NCBI GenBank assembly: GCA_031370285.1
Contig: JANMQG010000057.1
Location: 33,502-97,501, forward strand
Source of the DNA: Chloracidobacterium sp.
GTDB lineage: Bacteria; Acidobacteriota; Blastocatellia; Pyrinomonadales; Pyrinomonadaceae
DNA: 64,000 bases
Direction of reading: 5' to 3'
Made by a program: the position numbers and the translations under genes. Below the pieces are notes generated by a model. It had not been told where the DNA came from. It ran no database searches and was given only the letters and a program-made list of their open reading frames with translations. This document shows positions 335 through 44,886 of this stretch, piece after piece. Every line of letters starts with the position of its first letter. Position 1 is the stretch's first letter.

Positions 335-1747
335 CTAGATGGTGCGACTAAACAATTGCGTCGCCGGCGCCTTGCGTGCAAGGCGCGCGTCAAAAGCCAT
401 GCAGATGTTACGCAAGAAAGCCCGCCCTTCGTCGGTGACCTCGCAGCGGTTGCGCGAAAGGCGCGCGAGCCCGTCGCGCCTGGGTTCGTCAAGTTTCTCC
501 GGCACTGCGTCGAGGTATGGAACGTAAAGCTCCGGACTGTCCCAACGTGTTTCAAACCGCGTCATCAGATTCAGAATGTGGCGACGCAGAATTTGGTCTT
601 CCTCGTCTAGTTGATGTCCGCGAAAGATCGGAATCTCGCCCTTCTCGATTCGCTCTTCATACGCCTCGATTGATTTTTCGTTTTGCACAAAGACGTCCCA
701 CGAATCACTGATCGAGGAAACGCCGAGGCCAATCAAAGGCGACACAAAGCGTGATGTATAGCCCATGAAATTTCGATGTAGGGTCCCATCCACCGAAGCC
801 TGCCAAAGCGAATCGGACTTCAGGGCAAAGTGATCCATGCCGATTTCGACATAGCCCGCCTGTTCCAGCATCGTCCGGCCAAGCTCGTACAGGCCGCGCT
901 TCTGCTCACCCGATGGCAGATCCGCTTCAGTGAAGTGACGTTGACCGGGCTTGACCCAGGGCACGTGCGCATAGCCATAAAAGGCGATACGCTCCGGCTT
1001 GAGCCTTAACACAGCCTCGATCGTTTGTTTGACGCCGGAGAGATTTTGGAAAGGCAGGCCGTAAATCAGATCGTAATTGATGCTCTGGAATCCGGCGGCG
1101 CGCGCTTGCTCGCTGACCGTCCGCACCTGTTCCTCAGATTGAACGCGATTTACCGCTAACTGCACTCGCGGGTCGAAATCCTGAATCCCAAGACTCAAAC
1201 GCTGGAAACCAAGTCGACCGAGCACTGCGAGTTGATCAGGCCGCGTCACCCTCGGGTCGGATTCAATTGAGAATTCTGCGTCGGGAGTCTGCCTGACGTG
1301 CTCCAGGATACCGCTTAGGAGTTCATCCAGTTCGCCGGCAGTGAGAAACGTCGGTGTCCCCCCACCGAGGTGCAATTCGCTCAGAGGAATGGGTCCGGAG
1401 TGCCCAAGTTTTTGTCGATATAACTCCCATTCCTTGAGCACTGTCTTGACGTAAGCTCCGCCGACAGTAGTGCTGCAGGTGATGCGCGAGTTGCAGCCGC
1501 AATAGGTGCACAGCGATTGGCAGAAGGGTACGTGCACGTAAATCGCCGCGCCGGTGCCGCCTAACTCGGCCAAGTGCAGACTCCGTCGCGTACTCTCAAG
1601 CCAGGCTGCCAGAGTCGGTTCGGCGTCCCAATATAGAATCGTAGGATAGCTTGTATAGCGCGGTCCGGGTACATCGTATTTTCTAAGTAGTTCCGACGCT
1701 GTTGCAATCACTGTCATGTCACCCTGAGACTGATTCGCTTCGGTCAT
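335..1747 (-). CDS. hemN: oxygen-independent coproporphyrinogen III oxidase (radical SAM)
   Basis: 470 aa. Radical-SAM CxxxCxxC seen as CQSLCTYCGC. N-terminal YDVPGPRYTSYPT and HLGGGTPTFL motifs typical of HemN. Confidence 0.9.
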   Translation of the reverse strand: MTEANQSQGDMTVIATASELLRKYDVPGPRYTSYPTILYWDAEPTLAAWLESTRRSLHLAELGGTGAAIYVHVPFCQSLCTYCGCNSRITCSTTVGGAYVKTVLKEWELYRQKLGHSGPIPLSELHLGGGTPTFLTAGELDELLSGILEHVRQTPDAEFSIESDPRVTRPDQLAVLGRLGFQRLSLGIQDFDPRVQLAVNRVQSEEQVRTVSEQARAAGFQSINYDLIYGLPFQNLSGVKQTIEAVLRLKPERIAFYGYAHVPWVKPGQRHFTEADLPSGEQKRGLYELGRTMLEQAGYVEIGMDHFALKSDSLWQASVDGTLHRNFMGYTSRFVSPLIGLGVSSISDSWDVFVQNEKSIEAYEERIEKGEIPIFRGHQLDEEDQILRRHILNLMTRFETRWDSPELYVPYLDAVPEKLDEPRRDGLARLSRNRCEVTDEGRAFLRNICMAFDARLARKAPATQLFSRTI

Positions 1748-19784: not shown

Positions 19785-22601
19785 ATGTCTACTCCTGTCG
19801 GCAAACGTCTTGGCCGTTATGAGATCCGCTCGCTGCTCGGAGTGGGCGGCATGGGTGAAGTCTATCTTGCTCAAGACAGTCAGCTGCGCCGACCGGTGGC
19901 GCTAAAACTTCTGCCGCCGAAATTCACAATCGACGAGGAGCGGCTGCGCCGTTTTAAGCAGGAAGCTCTTGCCGCATCTGCCCTGAACCATCCGAATATT
20001 CTCACGATCCACGAGATCGGCTCAGAAGGCGACACCGATTTTATCGTTACGGAATTTATCGACGGAATCTCGCTGCGCGAGCTCATGGCAAAACAGCCGA
20101 TGTCGATCGGACAGGTACTGGACATCTGTAGCCAAATCGCTTCCGCGCTGGCTGCAGCTCATGCGGCCGGCATCGTGCATCGCGATATTAAGCCAGAGAA
20201 TGTGATGGTCCGACGCGATGGCTATGTAAAGGTGCTCGACTTTGGTCTCGCGAAGCTTACTGAGCTTCCAGGACTGCATAGTGATTCCGAGGCGGCGACG
20301 GTACAAGTGGTGAAGACTGATCCTGGAAAGGTCATGGGCACAGCCAAGTACATGTCTCCCGAACAGGCGCGCGGGTTAGAAGTTAATGAGCAAACCGACA
20401 TCTGGAGTCTGGGAGTCTTACTTTATGAACTGGCCGCAGGGCGGGTTCCTTTTGAAGGACAGACCGGCAGTGACGTTTTGGCGTCGATATTGACCGCCGA
20501 ACCCGTACCTCTGCAACGACATTCGCCCGACATTCCAACCGAACTGCAACGGATCGTGCGTAAAGCATTGCGCAAGGATCGCGAGGAGCGATATCAGTTG
20601 GCCAAGGAGTTGGCCCTGGATCTAAAGAATCTGCGCCGGGAGTTGGAGCTTAACGTCGAAATCGAGATTTCTCAGCAACCTGCTGCGCCCCCTCAGCAAG
20701 CTTTGGGCATAGGCGCCAGCCGGGCGGGCACTAGAAGTTTCCATTCGACTTCGCACACTGCGGAGGTGAATGTCCGAAAGACCAACTCGACTGCCGAATA
20801 CCTCGTAGCGGAAATCAAATCTCATCCCAAAGCCCTCGTGTTTATCCTGGGAGTTATCGGTTTAGCAGCGCTGGCGATCGTGCTGACGGTGGCTTACCGG
20901 TGGACGGCAACACAGTCCTCGTCCAGCAACGTTTCCAGTTCTTTGCGAACCATGAAGATCGCCCGCCTCACAAGCTCCGGCACTGCGGATAAAGCGGCCA
21001 TCTCGCCTGATGGCAAATACCTGGTCCATGTTGCGAGCGAGAGCGGACAGCAGAGTTTGCGCGTGCGTCAGGTCAACACCAACAGTGATGTGCAGATCAT
21101 GCCGCCATCTGACGTGCAATTTGCCGGACTGACTTTTTCGCGGGATGGCGATTTCATCTACTACGTGGCCGCTGAGAAGAACAGCGCTACGTCGAACCTC
21201 TATCAAATCCCCGCATTGGGCGGAAACGAACGAAGACTGTTCTCAAATGTGGGAAGTGCTGTCACGTTCTCGCCCGACGGACAGCAGGTGGCATTCATTC
21301 GCAACTTTCCCGACGCCGGAGAAGATGCATTGATGATCGCGAGCGCCCAGGGTGGCGGCGAACGCAAACTCACTGTGCGCAAGTTGCCAAACTTCTTTCG
21401 CCATGTCGCCTGGTCGCCGGACGGAAAAACAATCGCCTGCAGCGCCGGGAGTTTTGTTCCCAGCTACACCACCTATGTTGTTGATGTAGCATTGGAAAGC
21501 GGCAAAGAGAAACAGATCGGAACTCAAAGCTGGATGTTTATGGGCCAGCTGGCCTGGATAGGTGATGGTAGTGCCCTAATTCTTGCCGCCTCGGAACAAG
21601 AGTCGGGTAGTTTTGATGCGCAACAGATCTGGTACGTCTCTTATCCTGAAGGTGGAGCGCGACGGGTTACGAACGACTTGAATGATTACACAGGAGTTAG
21701 TCTGACGTCCGACTCGAATCGTCTGGTGACCGTTCAGTCTGAAACGAGTGCGAATGTTTGGATCGTGCCGAATGGTGACGCGAATCGGGCAACCCGAACC
21801 ACCACCGGGACGGGCAAGATCGATGGGCGCGACGGCCTCGCCTCGACCCCTGAGGGAAAGATCGTCTACGCCTCGAAGGCCAGCGGCAATTTGGATCTTT
21901 GGATGATGAATGGCGACGGCACTAATCAAAGGCAGTTGACAGAAAACTCGCGTATCAACAGTCACCCTGCGGTATCGCCCGATGGTCGTTACATTGTCTT
22001 CGCTTCGGATCGCACCGGAGCGTCAAACATCTGGCGCACCGACATAGATGGCAGCAATGCCCGACAGTTAACCAGGGGCAGCGGCGAAGACAATCCGCAA
22101 TGTTCGCCGGACGGTAAATGGGTTGTTTACACCTTGCTGGGCGCAGGGAAGCCAACCCTCTGGCGCGTCTCAATTGATGGCGGAGCTGCTCAGGAACTCA
22201 CCGATAAGTATACCGCCGCTGCGGCTCTCTCGCCCGACGGTAAATCGCTGGCCTGCCTCTATCGCGAAGAACAACCCAATTCGCCGCTCAAACTGGCAAT
22301 CTTTCCTCTCGAAGGAGGAGAGCTAACGCGTGTCTTTGATGCGCCAATTCCCGCCGAGGAAGTATCGCTCGTGCCACCGCCCCGCTGGACAACGAATGGC
22401 CGAGCGCTGACCTACGTTGTGACAAGCGCAGGTGTTTCTAATATCTGGCTTCAGCCGATCGACGGCGGGGCGCCCAGACAGCTGACCATGTTCAGCGCCG
22501 ACCGCATCTTCTCATTTGAGTGGTCGCGCGATGGCAAGCAACTCTTAGTCGCCCGCGGCATGGTGGCGAGCGACGTCGTATTGATTAGTAATTTTCGTTG
22601 A
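19785..22601 (+). CDS. Ser/Thr protein kinase with TM segment and C-terminal TolB-like beta-propeller repeats
   Basis: Kinase motifs GVGGMGEVY, HRDIKPEN, DFGLA. TM ALVFILGVIGLAALAIVLTVAY. Repeated SPDGK/SPDGR propeller blades. Confidence 0.85.
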   Translation: MSTPVGKRLGRYEIRSLLGVGGMGEVYLAQDSQLRRPVALKLLPPKFTIDEERLRRFKQEALAASALNHPNILTIHEIGSEGDTDFIVTEFIDGISLRELMAKQPMSIGQVLDICSQIASALAAAHAAGIVHRDIKPENVMVRRDGYVKVLDFGLAKLTELPGLHSDSEAATVQVVKTDPGKVMGTAKYMSPEQARGLEVNEQTDIWSLGVLLYELAAGRVPFEGQTGSDVLASILTAEPVPLQRHSPDIPTELQRIVRKALRKDREERYQLAKELALDLKNLRRELELNVEIEISQQPAAPPQQALGIGASRAGTRSFHSTSHTAEVNVRKTNSTAEYLVAEIKSHPKALVFILGVIGLAALAIVLTVAYRWTATQSSSSNVSSSLRTMKIARLTSSGTADKAAISPDGKYLVHVASESGQQSLRVRQVNTNSDVQIMPPSDVQFAGLTFSRDGDFIYYVAAEKNSATSNLYQIPALGGNERRLFSNVGSAVTFSPDGQQVAFIRNFPDAGEDALMIASAQGGGERKLTVRKLPNFFRHVAWSPDGKTIACSAGSFVPSYTTYVVDVALESGKEKQIGTQSWMFMGQLAWIGDGSALILAASEQESGSFDAQQIWYVSYPEGGARRVTNDLNDYTGVSLTSDSNRLVTVQSETSANVWIVPNGDANRATRTTTGTGKIDGRDGLASTPEGKIVYASKASGNLDLWMMNGDGTNQRQLTENSRINSHPAVSPDGRYIVFASDRTGASNIWRTDIDGSNARQLTRGSGEDNPQCSPDGKWVVYTLLGAGKPTLWRVSIDGGAAQELTDKYTAAAALSPDGKSLACLYREEQPNSPLKLAIFPLEGGELTRVFDAPIPAEEVSLVPPPRWTTNGRALTYVVTSAGVSNIWLQPIDGGAPRQLTMFSADRIFSFEWSRDGKQLLVARGMVASDVVLISNFR

Positions 22602-22620: not shown

Positions 22621-23229
22621 CTACTGCTTGATCACTCTTAAATTCTTCAGTGCCGACCCTACTTCTTCGTTGTTCGGCCGCTGCTTGTAGTCGGTCTCGA
22701 CTTTGATCCAGGCGACTCGTCCGTCCTCATCGATAATGTAAACCGTGGCGTGCGGAATGCCCTCAAATTTCTGCCCATTGTAAGCCGAGTCGCGAACTCC
22801 ATATGCGTCGATCACCCGATGAGCGGGGTCGGACAAGATTGGAAAGTTGACTTCTCCTTTGCCGTCGGCGGCAATCTGCTCAGCAAACTGTCTGCTTTCG
22901 GCCGGACTGTCAACGCTGACTGCATAGAAGCGAACCTGCTCTTCTTGTTTTACCAATGAACGCAGCCCGGCCAACTGCCGAGCACAGTAGGGTCACCAGT
23001 TGCCTCGATAAAAGACAAGGACTGTGGGCATGCTGCCGCGCGCGGAGGAGAGTGTAACTTTTCGATTGTTTTGATCATCGAGTGTAAAGTCGGGAGCCAT
23101 CTCACCGACCGCGACCGGCGAATTACGAGGCTTCAAGTCGCCGTCGCTCGAGGAAGATGAGTTGAGCTTCGTAGTACACGCGATGCTTCCGATGATTAGG
23201 GTGATTGCTCCCGCAACTCTGAGATTCAT
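22621..23229 (-). CDS. lipoprotein-type peroxiredoxin-like (AhpC/TSA-redoxin) protein with in-frame TGA at 22993-22995; selenoprotein candidate or pseudogene
   Basis: ORFs 22993-23229 and 22621-22974 are in one frame. The junction reads VLVFYRGNW-TGA-PYCARQLAGL, so the stop replaces the first Cys of the WCPxC redox motif. Signal/lipobox LIIGSIAC. Confidence 0.6.
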
Positions 23230-23872
23230 AAGCCTGACATCCTAACGAGTATTCTATGATGTGTGCAGCCGGGTATTCCTTCTTCGTTCGCCGGTAACAG
23301 TATTACAAAATTGCAGTTCGGGCAAAGCAAACTCTATTTCTGGCGTTTGAACGCATGAATCTCTTGGCGGGGATCCAGCCGTATCTAACGTCGGTCAAAA
23401 GAGTGGCTTCGCTGTTAGCCCTCTTTGTTCCGCTTGCCATCTTCGGGATTCGATTTCTGACGGGGAAGTTCAAAGCAAGGCTCTGACACTGCGCATCATT
23501 AAGCTTCGCACTTCGAATACTCAGAATCAAAATGTGATGATTAGAGGTGTTATTCAGGCTAATATCTTGACTATGATATTTTGCCGTTCCTAACCAAGGA
23601 GACCGTCTCACGATATGAAAGTGGTCAGAGGCGCGCGCCGAGCAAAAGCGTCGCGCCCAAAATGGATGGGCCAAACCTGGAAACGTATCGTCCAATATTG
23701 ATCTTCATTCTGATCTCCTCATTCTAAAAAAGCGTACCGTCGAGGTGCGGAACGATGGATTTACTCCAGGTCTTGCCGCCATCTTTCGACCTGGCGATGT
23801 TCCAGCCAACGCGGTTTTCCAAGGGTTTTATACGCTTATATATGGAGCTTAACGCAACCGCCGTAGATTTAT

Positions 23873-23912
23873 CTGTAGCGACGTCACAACGGCGTCACAA
23901 GAAGATGAGCGC
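23873..23912. repeat. left copy of about 40-bp direct repeat containing CGTCACAA x2
   Basis: ctgtagcgacgtcacaacggcgtcacaagaagatgagcgc versus ctgcagccgcgtcacaacggcgtcacaagagaaaatgagagc at 30030-30072. Confidence 0.7.
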
Positions 23913-23953
23913 GCAGGCAGAGTTTGAATACCCAGCCATTGAGTAGGCAACTA

Positions 23954-26900
23954 CTAACCGTGGATGCGCAGACAGGCATAGTCAACAACGATAGCGCCGT
24001 AGGACAGTGAGAGACCCTCGACTTCCGGGCGAGCAAAGCGGTAAGTCTGCTCGTGAAAGAGAGGAAGCAGCAGTCTGTCCCGCGCGATGATTTCTTCGAC
24101 CTGTCGATAGATACCATGTCTAGCCGCCGGTGATGTTTCTAATCGTCCCCGTGCTATCAGACGGTCAACTTCGGCTGAGCCACACAGTTTTCCTAAATAT
24201 CCATTCTTGGTACTCAGGATGTTTGCGAAGGTGTCGGCATCAGGATAATCCGCGCCCCAGCGCCCCAGAACTATATCGACGGAACCCTGTAACAGCGCCT
24301 CCTGCAATTCATTCATCGTCTTGTTCACGGTGCGAAATTTTATCTGGTGATCGCTGACCGAGCGCGAGATCTCACGCGCGAGAGCTGAATATTCCCCAAA
24401 AAACACCGGGTTTACGGCAGCGGTCAATTCGACTTTCACGTCTGGCTGTTCGGACGCGGATGTAGATGGAACAGGCATTCTCGGCGTGTATGCAGAATCA
24501 TGACCAAGCAGTCCAGGCGGTATGAGTCCCTGGGCTGGGACCGCGAGTCGTCCCAGGGTCTGACGCACCACGCTCGCAACGTCGATCGACCGCGCCAGCG
24601 TCTGGCGCAGGCGTTTGTCCTTCAGTGGTCCGCGTTGACAGTTGAATGCCGCGTAGTAGGTTATGAGGTTCGGGATCTCGTGATAACCGGAGGCAAACTC
24701 AGGATCGCGCCGCAGCGCCTCTGCGTCCGCAGGCAACAGATCGGCCGCCAGCGAAAATCGACCGGCGCGGAACTGCGAGAGGATGTCCGCCGGGGCGACA
24801 CCGAAATTAAAATTGAGTCGTTCAATTCTCGGATAGCCACTGCGCCAGTAGTTTCGGTTTCGCTCGAGCTCAAGGCGCACGCCTGGCTCAAACTTTAAAA
24901 CGCGAAAAGGGCCGGTTCCCACGCTACCTTCTTGCCAGCTTGCCCCAAACTTGTCGCTGCCTTCAGGGACGATGGCCGCTGCGTGATAAGAAATGAGCGC
25001 CGGGAAGAATGAGACCGGCTCGTCGAGCTCGATCGTAAACTCATTGGCTGAGTGAATGCGAAAGCCGGCAAGGTCGGAAGCCTCACCGTTCAGGAGCGTC
25101 TTAGCGCCGCGAATGGGTGCATAGAAGAAGCGTCCAAGACTTTCCGGGTTCAGTAGCAGCCTTTCAAACGAGTAGCGAACATCGCGCGCGGTCAGTTTGC
25201 GTCCATCATGGAAGCGAACATCATCCCGGAGGCGGAAACGATATCTCCTACCTCCCTGTTCAGCCGTGAAATCTGTAGCCAGCCAGGGAACGATGCGAGC
25301 GCCACCGACATCGCGAGTCAGGGTTTCGAAAATGCTCGGCAGCACCTCTGAATCTTCTACGGTGCCCGCCAGTGAGGGATCGACGTGGTTGAGTGTGCCT
25401 GTTATCGGGACTTCAATCGTGCCACCGCCGGCCCGCAGGGTGTCGGTCGCTCTGGCCGCCGATTCTAACTTGCCTATCTCGGCATAGTTAACATATGGAG
25501 CGCTGCCATAAAGGTTAAGCCCGCGAACCTTTGAGTTGGCAAGGCGATAATCGACATCGTGAAACAGCGGTAACACAATTCCTGATTCCTGCAAAAAACT
25601 TTCGTACTTCCGATACAGTGATGCCCTGACACCGGGACGGCTTTCGGTACGCGCCTCTTCGAGTATCTGATCCCCTTCGGCCGAGGAGATGTAAGTGCGG
25701 TATAGACCCACACGTGAATGGAAGAGACCATAGGTAAAGTCGTCCGGGTCATCATAGTCAGCATTCCATCTGCCGATGAACACATCTATTCCCGCACTAC
25801 TCTGGAAAGATTCCAGGTAAGAGGCCATCGTGGGTGTCGCGACCTCAACTTTCACACCGAGCTCCGACCAGATTGAGAGCAGACTTGTCAGTAGCGATTC
25901 ATATCGATCCAGAAACAAAGGATGTACGGCCGCCCTGAGCTTGATTGGATCGGTGATGCCGGCTGAGCGCAGCATGGATGAGGTCTCGTCGCGAGTGAGT
26001 GTTTGGCGCCGCCTTCCCGGATCATACCCAAGCATCCCGGGTGGAATCAGGCAGACGGCAGGCTGCGCAAACCGCCCAAGTGTTTGCCAAACCAGATCGT
26101 GCGTGCGCACTACGCCGGAGAGTGCTCGACGAAGGTCGAGATTTTGGGCGACTGAACCACTCGTCGAATTGAATATCAGGAAGTAAGTGTTCTTGCGCGG
26201 AGACTCGACCAACCCGCCGCGAAAGCGTGGGTCGCGAAGAAACTCTTCAAGATCCTGAGGCGATAGATCGCGTGCGAGGTCAATCGAGCCTGACCGCAAC
26301 CCTGAAGCTATCTCAGCAGCGCTGAGCCCGGCCCGAAATTCAACCTCATCAAGATGCGCGGAAGAACCCTTCCAGTATTTTTCATTACGCTCGAGCACGA
26401 TGCGGTCGGGCCTATACGAGGCCATGCGAAACGGACCCGTGCCAATCGGAATCGAATCGGTCTTTCCCGCAGCAACGTCGCTTAGGGTGATGCCGGTCTT
26501 GTAATCTGTCAGTAGGGCAGGATAGATGGAAAGTGGGTCAGGCAACTGTATTTCCAATTTGTAATCTGCATGGACCACAATTCCAACAAGCTCCTCGTCA
26601 TTGCTCGCCGTCCTTGCGAATTCGGCCGCGCCACGGATCGCCGCGAGTCCCGGAGGTAGCTCACGAGCTACACGAATGCTCCGCTCGAAGGAACGTTTGA
26701 CAGCCTGAGCGGTCAGGGCCTGACCATTCTGGAAGCGGACGTTTTCTCGCAGTGTAAAGAAAACCGAAGTGCCGTCCTCGGACACTTCCCATTTCTCGCA
26801 GAGAGCCGGAACTAAATTGCCTTCGAGATCTGTCGCCAATAAAGTCTCAAAGACGTTTGCTAAAATCTCCTGCTCTTCCACCAGTTCCATATTGACGGGA

Positions 26901-29629
26901 TCAATGTCGCCGAGCGGGGTGGCCAAAGCCACGACCAGTCTGCCCCCCTTTGGTATCTCTTCCTGGAGTTCGGTTTCCTTTGCAGCCGGAGCCAGGGAAA
27001 CTGCCTCTTCGAGGTAATCGTTGGCTTTCTCATACTCTCCACGAAGGTTGGCGAGGGTGGCCGCCAAAGACAGCGCATGCCTCAGGCTATCGGTGTCTCC
27101 CACCGCGTGCGCAGCGTCAATAACCTGCTGCACCAGTCGCGTTGTCTCCTCGACCTTTCTGGCTTGCCAGGCAGTCTCCGCGGCGAGCAGGAGTGCTGCG
27201 ACTGCTCGCGGCTTTTGATTTTCACGTTCCAGGATCCGTCCCGCACTCTCTGCCTCTTTTAGTGCAGCATCGACGTCTCCCGCGATGCGGTGGGCCTGAG
27301 CCAGGAGCATTCGTGCTTCACCTTCGAGAGCCGGATCACCTTCCCATTCCTCATCAAGAAACTCGAGTACTGTCTTCGCGGCGCGAGCTGCTTCTTCGGG
27401 GCTGAAAGCATCAAGCGCTGCCTTAGCCATGCGCAACCCATACTCAACTGTCTTGTCGGGGACGTCACCCTGGGAGAAGTGGTGGACCAATTGTGGGTAG
27501 ACGCGCTCGAGTCTGCCGCCGTGACGCTTCTCAACTTCCTCAGCATATTTCCGGTGCAACGACCTTCGCTTGCGGCGGGCAATTGCACCGTAAAGCACGT
27601 CGCGAACGACGCCGCTCGAAAACACCAGGCGATCACCTCTCGACTCCCGTTCTTCCTCAAGGAGTCCCTCTTCTACCAGACGGTCAATCGCGTCCTCAAC
27701 ATCCTTTGCACCGGCCAGCGCTTCCAGGTCGCGAAAGTCAAAAGCCTTGCCGATAACTGAAGCAATCGACAGAATCTCACGCAGTTCTTCAGGTAGACGC
27801 TCGATACGTTTTTCGACCGCCTGTTGAATGGTGGCCGGCAAATCGCCGGTTGAGAGATCAGTGGCAGCACCGAGACTCCAGGCTCCTGTTTGATCCTTTG
27901 CGATGCCGCCTGAATCAAGCAGCGAGCGGACCAGTTCCTTAGTGAAGAATGGGTTGCCCTCAGTTCCTTCATAAAGTTTTTCGACGAGGCTGTCGGCTAG
28001 TTTAGGTCCGCCTATCAGTGTTTCGAGAAACAGGCGATGTTCCGCGGGTGAGAAAGGTCCCAGCGGGATTGCGGAAAAACGGCGGTCCCCGCGGAAACTT
28101 TCAAGCATTCGGAGCAGCGGATGGTTACGGCTGTCTACTTCACTTGACCGGTACGTCCCAACAATCAGCGTGGGAGTTGGTCCTAATCGACGAACGATGT
28201 ATTGCAATGCTTCAATGGATATCTCTGCCGCATGAAGATCTTCGAGGAAAAGAATCAGCGGCTTTCCCGCTGCCAGGCGTGTGAGCGTTCGCGCCAGTAG
28301 TTCAAAAACCTGGGTGCGGTTTTCGGGTCCCTGTGATCCGCCAAGCGATCCTCCAGACTGGGCCAACTTGGAGTCACCAGTCGCGGCGGCGCGAATCTCG
28401 CTGATCTCTGTAAGCATGGGAAACAACGACACGAGATCGGGGGCAACATCCGACAGCTCTAACATGTTGTCGGGAGAGCTGGCGCTATCCTTCAGCCGGA
28501 AGTATTCCTGAATTGCTTCACAGAACCCTTGATACGGGAAGGCGCCATCCTGCTCAATCGATCGGCCATGAAGGACGAGAAGCTTGCGGGCTTTGGCCAG
28601 GTTTTCTATCTCGTCGAGCAATCGTGTCTTACCGACGCCGGGCTCGCCTGACACCACGACAAATTGGCACTCACCGCTAATGGCGGCATTGAGTCGCTTC
28701 TGCAACTCAGCCTGCTCCTTCTCTCGGCCGATGAAGGGAGAGAGCGCCACACGCGGCATCATCAACGTCTTGGTCATTACCACTGATTTGCCGAGGTCGC
28801 TCTGGTGCAATCGGGTTTGACAGCGCCTTAAGGAATCAGCAACTTCACTTGCTCGCTGTGGTCGCTTTCCAGGCTCCTTGGCTATGCAGGCGAGTATGGC
28901 TTCCTCGAGGTCCTCATTAATCTCCGCACCCAATGAGCGCGGCGACTGGGGAATCTCATGAACTATTCGATAGAGTATCGATTGAAGTTCGCCCGAGAAT
29001 GGCGGTTCGCCAGTAAGACACTCGTAGAGAACAGTGCCGAGAGAATAAATGTCCGAGCGATGGTCCACTGCGTTAGCCGCCACTTGCTCCGGACTCATGT
29101 ATGAGAGAGTTCCTGCAATAGTGCCGGTCTTGGTAATGCGACTCTCTGTGGCGCCTCTGGCCAGACCAAAGTCCATGATCCGCACCCTGACACGAGCACC
29201 ATCCTCCCGCGTCGCCATGATGTTCTCCGGTTTTATGTCCCGGTGCGTTACGCCGCGTGAATGGCTGTATTCGAGTGCTTCGGAAACCTGGATGCCAATG
29301 TCGATAACTTCGCCCAGCGTCAGCGCGCCTTCGCGCTCGAACCAGCGCAGGTTCGTTCCCTGGAGAACGGGCATGACAAAAAAGAGCGATCCTTCGTGTT
29401 TGCCAAAGTCGAAGATTGGCACGATTGCTGGATGGTCCATCTGGGCCACCAGCTGCGCTTCGCGTTGGAAGCGTTGTTCCGTTTCGGGGTTCAGCAGTGT
29501 TGGAGGAATAAGCTTGACGGCTACTTCACGGTTCAATAGCGGGTCATGCGCGCGGTAGACCACGCCCATTCCGCCGCGGCCCAACTCCGACTTGATTTCG
29601 TATCGGTTAGAAAGCGTTTGACCAATCAT
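23954..29629 (-). CDS. multidomain Ser/Thr kinase - AAA/STAND ATPase - TPR-like region - two tandem family-5 solute-binding (peptide/nickel SBP) domains
   Basis: Start taken at ATG 29629 (GGAGGG RBS); the ORF opens at TTG 29656. Kinase GRGGMGVVY/HRDIKPEN/DFGLA. Walker A SGEPGVGKTRLLDE. Two SBP5-like modules each with DP...FETL...VRFxxG..LTA..V..SFER. No TM or signal peptide seen. Confidence 0.85.
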   Translation of the reverse strand: MIGQTLSNRYEIKSELGRGGMGVVYRAHDPLLNREVAVKLIPPTLLNPETEQRFQREAQLVAQMDHPAIVPIFDFGKHEGSLFFVMPVLQGTNLRWFEREGALTLGEVIDIGIQVSEALEYSHSRGVTHRDIKPENIMATREDGARVRVRIMDFGLARGATESRITKTGTIAGTLSYMSPEQVAANAVDHRSDIYSLGTVLYECLTGEPPFSGELQSILYRIVHEIPQSPRSLGAEINEDLEEAILACIAKEPGKRPQRASEVADSLRRCQTRLHQSDLGKSVVMTKTLMMPRVALSPFIGREKEQAELQKRLNAAISGECQFVVVSGEPGVGKTRLLDEIENLAKARKLLVLHGRSIEQDGAFPYQGFCEAIQEYFRLKDSASSPDNMLELSDVAPDLVSLFPMLTEISEIRAAATGDSKLAQSGGSLGGSQGPENRTQVFELLARTLTRLAAGKPLILFLEDLHAAEISIEALQYIVRRLGPTPTLIVGTYRSSEVDSRNHPLLRMLESFRGDRRFSAIPLGPFSPAEHRLFLETLIGGPKLADSLVEKLYEGTEGNPFFTKELVRSLLDSGGIAKDQTGAWSLGAATDLSTGDLPATIQQAVEKRIERLPEELREILSIASVIGKAFDFRDLEALAGAKDVEDAIDRLVEEGLLEEERESRGDRLVFSSGVVRDVLYGAIARRKRRSLHRKYAEEVEKRHGGRLERVYPQLVHHFSQGDVPDKTVEYGLRMAKAALDAFSPEEAARAAKTVLEFLDEEWEGDPALEGEARMLLAQAHRIAGDVDAALKEAESAGRILERENQKPRAVAALLLAAETAWQARKVEETTRLVQQVIDAAHAVGDTDSLRHALSLAATLANLRGEYEKANDYLEEAVSLAPAAKETELQEEIPKGGRLVVALATPLGDIDPVNMELVEEQEILANVFETLLATDLEGNLVPALCEKWEVSEDGTSVFFTLRENVRFQNGQALTAQAVKRSFERSIRVARELPPGLAAIRGAAEFARTASNDEELVGIVVHADYKLEIQLPDPLSIYPALLTDYKTGITLSDVAAGKTDSIPIGTGPFRMASYRPDRIVLERNEKYWKGSSAHLDEVEFRAGLSAAEIASGLRSGSIDLARDLSPQDLEEFLRDPRFRGGLVESPRKNTYFLIFNSTSGSVAQNLDLRRALSGVVRTHDLVWQTLGRFAQPAVCLIPPGMLGYDPGRRRQTLTRDETSSMLRSAGITDPIKLRAAVHPLFLDRYESLLTSLLSIWSELGVKVEVATPTMASYLESFQSSAGIDVFIGRWNADYDDPDDFTYGLFHSRVGLYRTYISSAEGDQILEEARTESRPGVRASLYRKYESFLQESGIVLPLFHDVDYRLANSKVRGLNLYGSAPYVNYAEIGKLESAARATDTLRAGGGTIEVPITGTLNHVDPSLAGTVEDSEVLPSIFETLTRDVGGARIVPWLATDFTAEQGGRRYRFRLRDDVRFHDGRKLTARDVRYSFERLLLNPESLGRFFYAPIRGAKTLLNGEASDLAGFRIHSANEFTIELDEPVSFFPALISYHAAAIVPEGSDKFGASWQEGSVGTGPFRVLKFEPGVRLELERNRNYWRSGYPRIERLNFNFGVAPADILSQFRAGRFSLAADLLPADAEALRRDPEFASGYHEIPNLITYYAAFNCQRGPLKDKRLRQTLARSIDVASVVRQTLGRLAVPAQGLIPPGLLGHDSAYTPRMPVPSTSASEQPDVKVELTAAVNPVFFGEYSALAREISRSVSDHQIKFRTVNKTMNELQEALLQGSVDIVLGRWGADYPDADTFANILSTKNGYLGKLCGSAEVDRLIARGRLETSPAARHGIYRQVEEIIARDRLLLPLFHEQTYRFARPEVEGLSLSYGAIVVDYACLRIHG

Positions 29630-30029
29630 CTTCCCTCCATGAAGAAACAAAGTCAAAAAGGTGTGAGAGGAACTCCTTCGTTAGGATGAGGAAAGAGAAC
29701 CCTTGTTGAGGGCGCTCTGTACTACTGAGCCAAGCGGTGACGGAAGTTGTAATGATAGGGCAGACCCTTACGGATTGTATAGAGGTGCGCACGAACGAGC
29801 GGGGACTAAGGTTGGCAAGTCAGGTGATGATGTTCGCGCGGCGCTTAAGACGAGGTAAGCGCTCAACCGTACTTCCCAATGCTGGTCAGGAGTCTCAAAT
29901 CCTAAGTCGAATCGCCCACGATTTGAATCTCTGACCTCCGCGTTGCACTTGGCCTCAATCACCTTTCGAACACTCTTAAGCCAAACAAAATCACATATTA
30001 TTCGAACGTCTGACTTCCGCGATCCGGCT

Positions 30030-43005: not shown

Positions 43006-44886
43006 ATGTCCGCAGACAAGGACCTGATCTCGGTACAGCAGGCGCGGGACCTGGTAGAAGCCGCTTATAAGGCGCAGGCTGAGATCGTCAAATTTGACCA
43101 GGCAAAGATCGATCGAATTTGCGAGGCCATGTCCCGGGCCGCTCTGCGCGAAGCCGCCCGCCTCGGCGCATTGGCCGTGGAGGAAACCGGCTTCGGTATC
43201 CCGGACGATAAGCGAGAGAAGAACCGTTTTGCCGCTGAAGATGTTTGGAACTACTTTCGCGGGTTGCGCACTGTCGGCGTCGTTTCAGAATCAAGAGATG
43301 TTGTAGAGATAGCGAGCCCGCGCGGCGTTGTTGCCGGCATCATCCCTTCCACCAATCCGACCTCCACGGCGATCTTTAAAGTTTTGATCGCGGTCAAATC
43401 CAGAAACGCTATTGTGCTTTCCCCTCATCCGTCCGCGGCTCGTTGTATCAACGAAACGGTGCAGGTGATGCGCGAAGCGGCCATCAAAGAAGGTCTGCCG
43501 GCGGACGCGGTTGCCTGCATGACGACCGCCACCATCGAAGGCACTGAAGCTTTGATGAAACACAAGCAGACGGCTGTCATCCTGGCTACCGGCGGCATTG
43601 GGCTGGTGCGCGCAGCTTATTCATCGGGCAAACCCGCGTTTGGAGTCGGCCCCGGTAACGTTCCTGTTTTTATCGAGAGAACTGCGGATGTTACCAAAGC
43701 GGTTCAGGATATTTTGACTGGAACGACTTTCGACAACGGAACCATTTGCGCTTCTGAGCAAGCTGTAGTTTGTGATGCTCCTATTGAAAAAGCTGTAAGG
43801 GAACAATTCAAAGCGCAGGGCGGGCACTTTCTTTCCGCTGCGGAAGCTGACCAACTGGGCAAAGTGGTGGCAACTCCACAACGTTCTCTAAACCCCGGGA
43901 TCGTAGGAAAGTCGGTCGAGGTGATTGCCAAGCTGGCCGGGTTGAACGTCCCTCCAGGCACGCGCTGCCTGATGGTGGATGTTGGCGGTGTCGGACGTGA
44001 GTTTCCGCTGTCTATGGAAAAGCTCTCACCCATCCTCGCGTTCTATGTGACGGACGGCTTATCGCGTGGCGCGGAGCGTTGCTATGAAATCCTGCGCTAC
44101 GGCGGCATGGGCCACACCGCGGGAGTTCACACTCGTTCGCGCGAGGCCGCGGTCCGCTTCGGCGGGGAGATGCCGGCGTCGCGCATTACGGTGAATACAC
44201 CTACAACTCACGGGGCGATTGGTTTCTCGACGGCGCTTCCGCCATCGATGACCCTGGGCTGCGGTTCGTGGGGCGGCAATGTAACTTCGGATAATGTGTC
44301 GCCACTCCACTTGCTGGATATCAAGCGAGTAGCTTTTGAAACAAGAGCAGTGAAAAGTAAACGGCCGGCAGTTGCAGCTTCTACGGTAGCCACTCCTGCG
44401 CCAGCGGCCGCGTATGCCGGAACGACTGCGAGCTCGGCGCCAGCTCAACCTCAGGCGGTAGTTGGTTCTGGTGCGGGCAAGATCAACCGCGAAGACATCG
44501 CCGCGATAGTCGACCGGTTTCTGGCGGGGCGCCAACCGGAGCAGCCGTCGAGTGAAGCAAGGGAGACGCGACAGCAACCGTCGCGCGCAGCAAGCGAGCC
44601 CGAAGCCGAAGCTGGCAGCATGTATGCCGGACCAGGCCAGAACCGAACTGATAATGTCCGCCAGCCGGCAAATGCCGGCCGATCATCTTCGGCATCTTCG
44701 GCTGGCTCCAGTTCAAGCAGCGCTTTGACCGCGAACAATGGCGCGAAGACGGTTGACTTCGTTAGTGAAGACGACGTCAAACGCGCGATTCAAAAAGGTG
44801 AGAAGATCTATATCAACGCGAAAACCATTATCACTCCGGCAGCCCGTGACATCGGCGAACCGGGCGAAGTGTTTGCTAAAGGCTAA
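43006..44886 (+). CDS. CoA-acylating aldehyde dehydrogenase (PduP/EutE-like) with 180-aa C-terminal extension
   Basis: Core about aa 1-446 with catalytic Cys in [11 protein letters not shown] (codon 43747-43749). Then an Ala/Ser/Pro-rich linker, amphipathic [16 protein letters not shown], a second Ser-rich linker, and the terminal module [33 protein letters not shown]. Confidence 0.9.

Follow-up and report, generated by a model that had tools for sequence, protein, structure and literature searches.

A stretch of 64,000 nucleotides from Chloracidobacterium sp. (contig JANMQG010000057.1), hereafter the window, carries on its minus strand a gene for a peroxiredoxin (Prx)-like redox protein that contains an in-frame TGA codon. 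The listing of open reading frames (ORFs) shows two entries in one frame, a 78-aa ORF starting with ATG (22993..23229) and a 117-aa ORF starting with TTG (22621..22974). Translation of 22621-23229 (minus strand) as a whole yields 202 sense codons followed by a TAG stop. The sole internal stop is the TGA at 22993-22995, and no other disruption is found. In the protein, this codon sits in the context ...TVLVFYRGNW-TGA-PYCARQLAGLRSLV..., the residues before it being MPTVLVFYRGNW and those after it PYCARQLAGLRSLV. With Cys substituted for the stop, the product matches the AhpC/TSA redoxin family PF00578 at 110.6 bits (cutoff 26, E = 6e-32) over residues 41-174, and the TGA falls inside the domain. 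The TTG "start" of the 117-aa ORF encodes Leu86 and lies within the loop of an RNA hairpin discussed below. This region is a single gene, 22621..23229, that annotation has split into two, and not a pair of genes. Its UGA, codon 79 and the first position of a U-P-Y-C redox motif, very probably encodes selenocysteine (Sec), as judged from the sequence comparisons that follow, which would make the whole a complete predicted selenoprotein coding sequence.

The TGA is conserved across relatives. In a search of 5.8 billion proteins, all matches above about 64% identity are C-terminal fragments of 111-117 aa; full-length proteins (about 198 aa) reach at most about 63% identity. The fragments are the expected outcome of gene callers that stop at TGA. 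Full-length homologs mostly read W-C-P-[FY]-C at the site, and six show W. Among species-representative genomes, 21 orthologs were readable at the DNA level; 20 of them, the most distant at 51% identity, have TGA at the exact codon, and the remaining one (L019) has TGT. These 20 come from Pyrinomonadaceae, Blastocatellia and other Acidobacteriota metagenome-assembled genomes (MAGs), along with one contig from a Burkholderiales bin. In 19 of them the reading frame continues uninterrupted to either side of the TGA; L022 has an extra stop near its 3′ end. A metagenome scan contributed 80 further loci to this set, bringing the totals across MAG and metagenome loci to 104 copies with TGA versus 2 with TGT; the frame is open on either side in nearly all 104. 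The motif varies among them as W-U-P-[YF]-C, W-U-T-Y-C and W-U-P-H-C. Contigs of MAGs with the TGA form include CAVVJS010000016.1, JBGTHZ010000102.1 and JBBRYS010000001.1. On a rough neighbor-joining tree, built without support values, the Sec forms fall among Cys forms as two large clades (68 and 27 unique sequences) and three isolated lineages, which implies about five Sec/Cys switches. An earlier note on this DNA had claimed that the two ORFs share a frame, that read-through gives a 202-aa redoxin-fold protein with no further disruption, and that the TGA replaces the first Cys of WCPYC. The ORF listing, the translation with its PF00578 match and the Cys of full-length homologs in the TGA column bear out each of these points. 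The note had also suggested looking for other TGA-containing orthologs and aligning Cys-containing homologs; the former are numerous, and the latter place Cys opposite the TGA codon.

Some copies have features of their own. The MAG JALZJF01 ('MOJ bin33') holds two TGA-type paralogs, L004 and L022, which are 84% and 57% identical to the window protein, and the additional stop in the second could also be a frameshift. Two tandem TGA-type paralogs occupy one metagenome contig (L084, TGA at 41-43 and 701-703), one reading W-U-P-Y-S, with the resolving Cys changed to Ser, and the other W-U-P-H-C. The motif of L069 is W-U-P-Y-F. The W-U-P-Y-S and W-U-P-Y-F forms may be single-selenol variants or sequence errors. 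The ortholog in the Burkholderiales bin (L020, contig JBKJMN010000379.1) is of TGA type, is 51% identical and has the acidobacterial type of hairpin; it reflects either horizontal transfer or a binning error.

Directly after the UGA, the mRNA can form a predicted bacterial Sec insertion sequence (SECIS) hairpin, GCUCGGC-AGUUG-GCCGGGC, at 22965-22983 (minus strand). It has 7 bp, including one G.U pair, a 5-nt loop and a minimum free energy (MFE) of -11.8 kcal/mol. Counted from the UGA, the stem begins after 9 nt and the loop after 16 nt; the loop, AGUUG, has G at its second position, followed by U. The published model of bacterial SECIS elements (bSECIS) calls for a loop of 3-9 nt, a stem of 4-16 bp, an MFE of at most -7.5 kcal/mol and a UGA-to-loop distance of 16-37 nt, with a G within the first two nucleotides of the loop and most often G or U next to it on the 3′ side (PMC13188914, Fig. 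2). The window hairpin falls within all four published criteria with its 5-nt loop, 7 bp, 16-nt spacing and -11.8 kcal/mol. Among 94 TGA orthologs, 97% have a hairpin at or below -7.5 kcal/mol, and two Cys-type loci, at -2.8 and -1.3 kcal/mol, have no real hairpin. The loop consensus across orthologs is A-G-U-U-R, or A-G-G-U-K in one subclade, and the consensus fold retains only the 5-7 bp stem. The hairpin had been located correctly at 9 nt past the UGA in the earlier note, which described 6 bp and a 7-nt loop; with the closing C-G pair, these become 7 bp and 5 nt. Its remark that the stem could not be extended agrees with the consensus fold.

Evidence that the hairpin is maintained comes from comparison among orthologs, and single-sequence thermodynamics was left out as evidence. 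Codons +4 to +8 (Ala-Arg-Gln-Leu-Ala) are nearly frozen at the synonymous level (GCT in 18/18, CGG in 17/19, CAG in 20/20 and GCC in 20/20), and codon identity at flanking fourfold sites is mostly 0.25-0.5. The synonymous identity of this segment is 0.89 overall and 0.86 versus a mean of 0.44 for between-clade pairs (gene mean 0.44-0.59), ranking first of 156 five-codon windows with z of about 3. Covariation was assessed on 94 sequences, 68 of them distinct, including metagenome loci. Of the cells that make up the 7-bp stem, 93% are paired; shifting the 3′ arm by 1-3 columns lowers this share to 13-42%. Compensatory changes occur at four of the seven pairs: U-A to C-G (14) or G-C (1), G-C to A-U (5), C-G to U-A (2) and, at the fourth, G-C to A-U (1). 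Double-change cells number 23, as against 6.0 +/- 1.9 after shuffling, and none of 500 shuffles reached the observed count. Several of these double changes join an amino acid change in one arm to a synonymous change in the other; in one example CGG (Arg) becomes CAG (Gln) together with a change of GCC to GCT (both Ala). Selection on the protein sequence would not by itself yield such covariation. The comparative evidence for the hairpin is far beyond chance, and the hairpin is a predicted functional RNA element with SECIS geometry, close to minimal in size.

A distant alphaproteobacterial clade (L024-L028; L024, L025, L026 and L028 are MAGs assigned to Alphaproteobacteria/Acetobacteraceae), at about 31% identity, encodes the same redoxin with W-TGA-P-Y-C, the motif lying at about 3200 in each. 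Its stem-loop is different and longer, with -19.2 kcal/mol, z = -3.1 and a loop UGGAU that starts 19 nt after the UGA. This stem-loop apparently represents an independent SECIS solution of the consensus type.

Several observations weigh against Sec insertion guided by this hairpin. The hairpin is short, and at 16 nt the distance from UGA to loop is the smallest that the published range allows. Single-segment folding energy is unexceptional relative to shuffled sequences (z = -0.29 and -0.59). Within the first 20 genome-derived orthologs covariation was not significant and RNAalifold reported no compensatory pairs; significance was reached only once the metagenome sample was added. Pair 17-33 is open in 25 of the 68 distinct sequences, so that the constant core amounts to 5 bp and the outer pair, and a few orthologs have an internal stem mismatch. 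An Rfam scan of the whole window at the gathering threshold and of 22800-23100 at permissive settings found no SECIS family, giving only a chance snoRNA match of 14 bits. Rfam models cover bacterial SECIS elements poorly, and this null result says little. Ten size-matched ORFs were compared with NCBIfam models, E. coli SelA, SelB and SelD served as tblastn queries for the window and every locus, and ARAGORN was applied to the window together with 55 loci. Neither selA, selB and selD nor tRNA-Sec turned up in the 64 kb of the window or in related loci that together span about 480 kb; linkage of these genes to a selenoprotein gene is not required. No plausible second selenoprotein occurs among the TGA-interrupted ORF pairs of the window. 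For a putative Sec trait of the source organism, literature support is at phylum level, and nothing specific was found on Sec in Blastocatellia or Pyrinomonadaceae. For Acidobacteria, three selenoprotein families with four selenoproteins were described in 2006 (PMC1794560), Occallatibacter riparius has three selenoprotein genes (PMC12013277) and a UxxU hydrogenase has been reported (PMC13582414).

Were the TGA a genuine stop, the locus would be a pseudogene or would encode an exported peptide of 78 aa and, from the internal TTG, a separate protein of 117 aa. Gene callers treat it in this manner, public databases contain the 111-117 aa fragments and UGA normally serves as a stop in this genome. 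Yet 104 copies share the TGA at one and the same codon, nearly all with an open frame to either side, and a genuine stop kept in this way is very hard to credit. Selection points the same way: dN/dS (Nei-Gojobori) is 0.10-0.13 upstream of the TGA and 0.12-0.18 downstream, and it is 0-0.09 for the six codons (PYCARQ) from TGA to TTG. These six codons would be non-coding if the ORFs were separate, and their low dN/dS argues against the two-gene model. PF00578 spans the TGA and, as the domain match and a structural model of a homolog indicate, neither ORF by itself makes up a whole fold. On its own, the C-terminal half would have no redox motif and no signal peptide, and its TTG sits inside the conserved hairpin loop. 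A pseudogene is thus rejected on the 104 TGA copies and the low dN/dS, and the preference in the earlier note for a Sec-containing protein is supported by the TGA orthologs, the purifying selection on either side (0.10-0.18; the note had named relaxed selection as a refuting sign) and the covarying SECIS-type hairpin. Barely conceivable is a sequencing or assembly error, or a genetic code with sense UGA (code 4 or 25). Six public full-length proteins have Trp at the Sec position (P0001, P0002, P0017, P0027, P0057 and P0077), and some public pipelines do read the codon as Trp, but the DNA of P0001 is TGA (L045:461-463), which makes its Trp an artefact of code 4 translation. The same TGA is present in more than 100 independent assemblies. 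TGA is also the commonest normal stop in the window, ending 17 of 29 long ORFs, which indicates the standard genetic code, and code 11 leaves very long ORFs (1900, 1255 and 1184 aa) uninterrupted. Code 4 is rejected for the window on this count, and error or an alternative code is effectively refuted. The Trp-containing full-length records and the C-terminal fragments are a systematic mis-annotation of the family.

A closer rival, though an improbable one, accepts site-specific recoding of the UGA but has something other than Sec inserted: Cys, through a tRNA(Sec)-like tRNA(Cys) and a SelB-like factor; the residue carried by an allo-tRNA acting as opal suppressor; or Trp, by hairpin-stimulated near-cognate read-through. 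Mukai et al. (PMC5389517) noted that tRNA(Cys) of the SelC* type may be an opal suppressor and that acidobacterial allo-tRNAs may be nonsense suppressors. The inserted residue is not identifiable from sequence data, and the missing Sec machinery in the loci covered would suit such recoding. The bacteria with reported SelC* tRNAs, however, are anaerobic Firmicutes, Thermodesulfobacteria, Nitrospirae and Proteobacteria, and Acidobacteria are not among them (PMC5389517). The geometry of the hairpin and its G[G/U] loop fit the SelB-type bSECIS consensus, and UxxC at the nucleophilic Cys of a thioredoxin (Trx) fold is the standard selenoprotein signature (PMC1794560, PMC2398784). It would be hard to explain why a costly UGA with its hairpin is held in more than 100 lineages only to insert Cys, when TGT is one mutation off. 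Trp or Ser at residue 79 would destroy the redox center. That this widespread soil family is a natural case of SECIS-style recoding to a non-Sec residue, through an allo-tRNA or a tRNA(Sec)-like tRNA(Cys), is decidedly improbable. Insertion of Sec at codon 79 is the reading followed in the remainder of the text.

The nearest solved relatives of the protein by sequence are Bcp/PrxQ-type peroxiredoxins (2ywn, 2cx3), AhpE and ResA-type oxidoreductases. In alignment with 2ywn and 2cx3, residue 79 (Sec) stands opposite the conserved Thr of the PxxxTxxC motif, and Cys82 (TGT, 22984-22986, minus strand), the partner of Sec79 in UxxC, stands opposite the peroxidatic Cys. Arg75 takes the place of the motif Pro, and Ala160 is opposite the conserved Arg of Bcp/PrxQ. 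Cys82 is invariant in 29 Cys-type homologs. Ala160 adjoins the segment G157-I158-P159, in which G157 and P159 are invariant among homologs and I158 is nearly so; Pro159 (22753-22755, minus strand) probably corresponds to the cis-Pro of the thioredoxin fold, given this conservation and the alignment. The structure was modeled for the Cys homolog P0003, which is 58% identical to the window protein. Its AlphaFold model has a predicted local distance difference test score of 87, and above 92 across the domain. Confidence is low for residues 1-31, as would be expected for a signal peptide and linker. The modeled C79-x-x-C82 lies at the N-terminus of helix 80-91. The best match in the Protein Data Bank is Mycobacterium tuberculosis AhpE (1xvw, 4x1u), with a template modeling score of 0.90 on the target, a root-mean-square deviation of 1.8 Å and 29% identity.

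No curated NCBIfam model scores above its cutoff for the window protein. The BCP model NF006960 gives 67 bits (cutoff 140), the ResA model NF002854 48.4 bits (cutoff 170), the PrxU model NF040737 41.3 bits (cutoff 270) and the SelL-related model NF040769 36.7 bits (cutoff 120). A true catalytic peroxiredoxin of the TxxU type is rejected, since the Pro, Thr and Arg of peroxiredoxins are Arg75, Sec79 and Ala160 here and both NF040737 and BCP fall below cutoff. On the same scores, the protein is not placed with the SelL-related redox proteins, and its relation to the ResA/TlpA type is one of functional analogy, not membership. The scaffold is predicted to be that of a peroxiredoxin and the active site a thioredoxin/ResA-style center with Sec as the N-terminal nucleophile. 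The protein is thus a predicted Prx-fold UxxC thiol:disulfide oxidoreductase. The Sec-containing Prx-like protein proposed in the earlier note holds as a selenoprotein with a Prx fold, refined to a UxxC oxidoreductase and not a catalytic peroxiredoxin.

The N-terminus, MNLRVAGAITLIIGSIAC18, has a hydrophobic stretch followed by a lipobox-like G-S-I-A-C18, in which position -3 (Ser) is atypical. This predicted signal peptide, ending in I-A-C18 (MNLRVAGAITLIIGSIAC; 23176-23229, minus strand), is recognized by pattern only. A lipobox-like Cys after a hydrophobic segment is present in at least 60 orthologs; orthologs of one subclade (clade B) have a signal peptide without the lipobox Cys. The protein of the window clade is probably exported and lipid-anchored.

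A mechanism can be proposed in which the ribosome reaches UGA79 and, in place of termination, Sec would be inserted to give W-U-P-Y-C, with SelB as the likely reader of the hairpin. After export, Sec79 and Cys82 would lie where the first long helix of a thioredoxin-like core begins. The pair would cycle between the selenol/thiol and selenenylsulfide states. Its substrates may be extracytoplasmic proteins, in which disulfides would be reduced or isomerized, or oxidized Cys reduced. The residue inserted, its reader, the lipoprotein localization and the redox cycle are the inferred parts of this scheme. What the comparisons document is a single reading frame under purifying selection, a UGA conserved at a predicted catalytic site homologous to Cys, a covarying hairpin of SECIS geometry found only in the UGA forms, and a Prx fold that has a CxxC-type center and lacks the Pro, Thr and Arg of Prx catalysis.

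Selenoproteins of the 'Prx-like 1' or Prx-like thiol:disulfide oxidoreductase type (pfam00578, UxxC) have been 'predicted with high confidence' (PMC13188914; also PMC1794560 and PMC2398784). The window gene shares with them PF00578, UxxC at the redox position of the thioredoxin fold, many CxxC homologs and a SECIS hairpin directly after the UGA. It differs in that its clade is acidobacterial (Pyrinomonadaceae/Blastocatellia and soil metagenomes), whereas described members are mainly deltaproteobacterial or marine. Among close relatives in this clade the Sec form far outnumbers the Cys form, and the protein has a predicted signal peptide and a putative lipobox. No NCBIfam selenoprotein model reaches cutoff, and the public records are fragments. 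The gene appears to be a new, previously unannotated and abundant acidobacterial member of the known Prx-like UxxC class, a class defined loosely by domain and motif in which it may form a separate subfamily.

Comparison with other systems sharpens this assignment. PrxU of Eubacterium acidaminophilum (NF040737, PxxxTxxU) is likewise a selenoprotein with the AhpC/TSA fold, but its Sec occupies the peroxidatic Cys position (TxxU), while the predicted Sec of the window protein is at the Thr position and Cys at the peroxidatic one. AhpE, a 1-Cys peroxiredoxin, has the closest solved fold; unlike the window protein, it has a PxxxTxxC peroxidatic site, lacks CxxC/UxxC and is cytoplasmic. ResA/TlpA/CcmG and the pneumococcal lipoproteins Etrx1/2 (2yp6, 4hqz) are exported or lipid-anchored, as is predicted for the window protein, and share with it a W-C-x-x-C type motif at a helix N-terminus. 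Their sequence and structure similarity to it is detectable, and they offer the best functional analogy. They use Cys and the smaller TlpA-type thioredoxin fold, in contrast to the window protein, which is nearer to AhpE/PrxQ. The hairpin, like the bSECISearch model and the minimal SECIS of E. coli fdhF, is a stem-loop just after the UGA with a small apical loop and an early G followed by U or G. Unlike the bSECIS consensus and fdhF, it is very short (5-7 bp), has no conserved lower stem or bulge and keeps the minimum spacing.

The redoxin gene looks monocistronic. A consensus scan of its flanks, including the 724 bp upstream of the gene (23230-23953), in which only short ORFs occur, found no sigma-70-like promoter and no intrinsic terminator. 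Its tail-to-tail neighbor, across a 19-nt gap, encodes a Ser/Thr kinase of 938 aa whose C-terminal part is a TolB-like beta-propeller (19785-22601, plus strand). Synteny of the two genes extends to 60 related loci with identity as low as about 60%, and could reflect a functional link or mere conservation of gene order. The upstream neighbor is not conserved in relatives. In the window it is a 1900-aa ORF (23954-29656, minus strand) with an N-terminal Ser/Thr kinase region and a very long C-terminal extension that, by eye, resembles an ATPase/repeat region and two peptide-binding-protein-like modules. Elsewhere in the window, at 335-1747 (minus strand) and 43006-44886 (plus strand), lie genes for HemN, the oxygen-independent coproporphyrinogen III oxidase (416 bits), and for an acetylating acetaldehyde dehydrogenase-like protein.

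The main value of the finding lies in correcting annotation. Public records of this gene and of over 100 soil acidobacterial orthologs contain either "redoxin domain" fragments of 111-117 aa or a Trp in the active site, and such truncated or mistranslated records lead to undercounting of the selenoproteome of a dominant soil lineage. The very short, well-sampled and covarying hairpin would be a clean, near-minimal bacterial SECIS element that could train selenoprotein predictors and seed a curated family model. Pyrinomonadaceae are generally regarded as aerobic soil bacteria. According to reviews, aerobes rarely keep selenoproteins (PMC13188914). A Sec form that outnumbers the Cys form among close relatives, predicted export and hosts regarded as aerobic are the somewhat unusual traits of this family. 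The HemN and acetaldehyde dehydrogenase-like genes hint at low-oxygen metabolism in a lineage usually called aerobic, a possibility that bears on why a Sec enzyme would have been kept.

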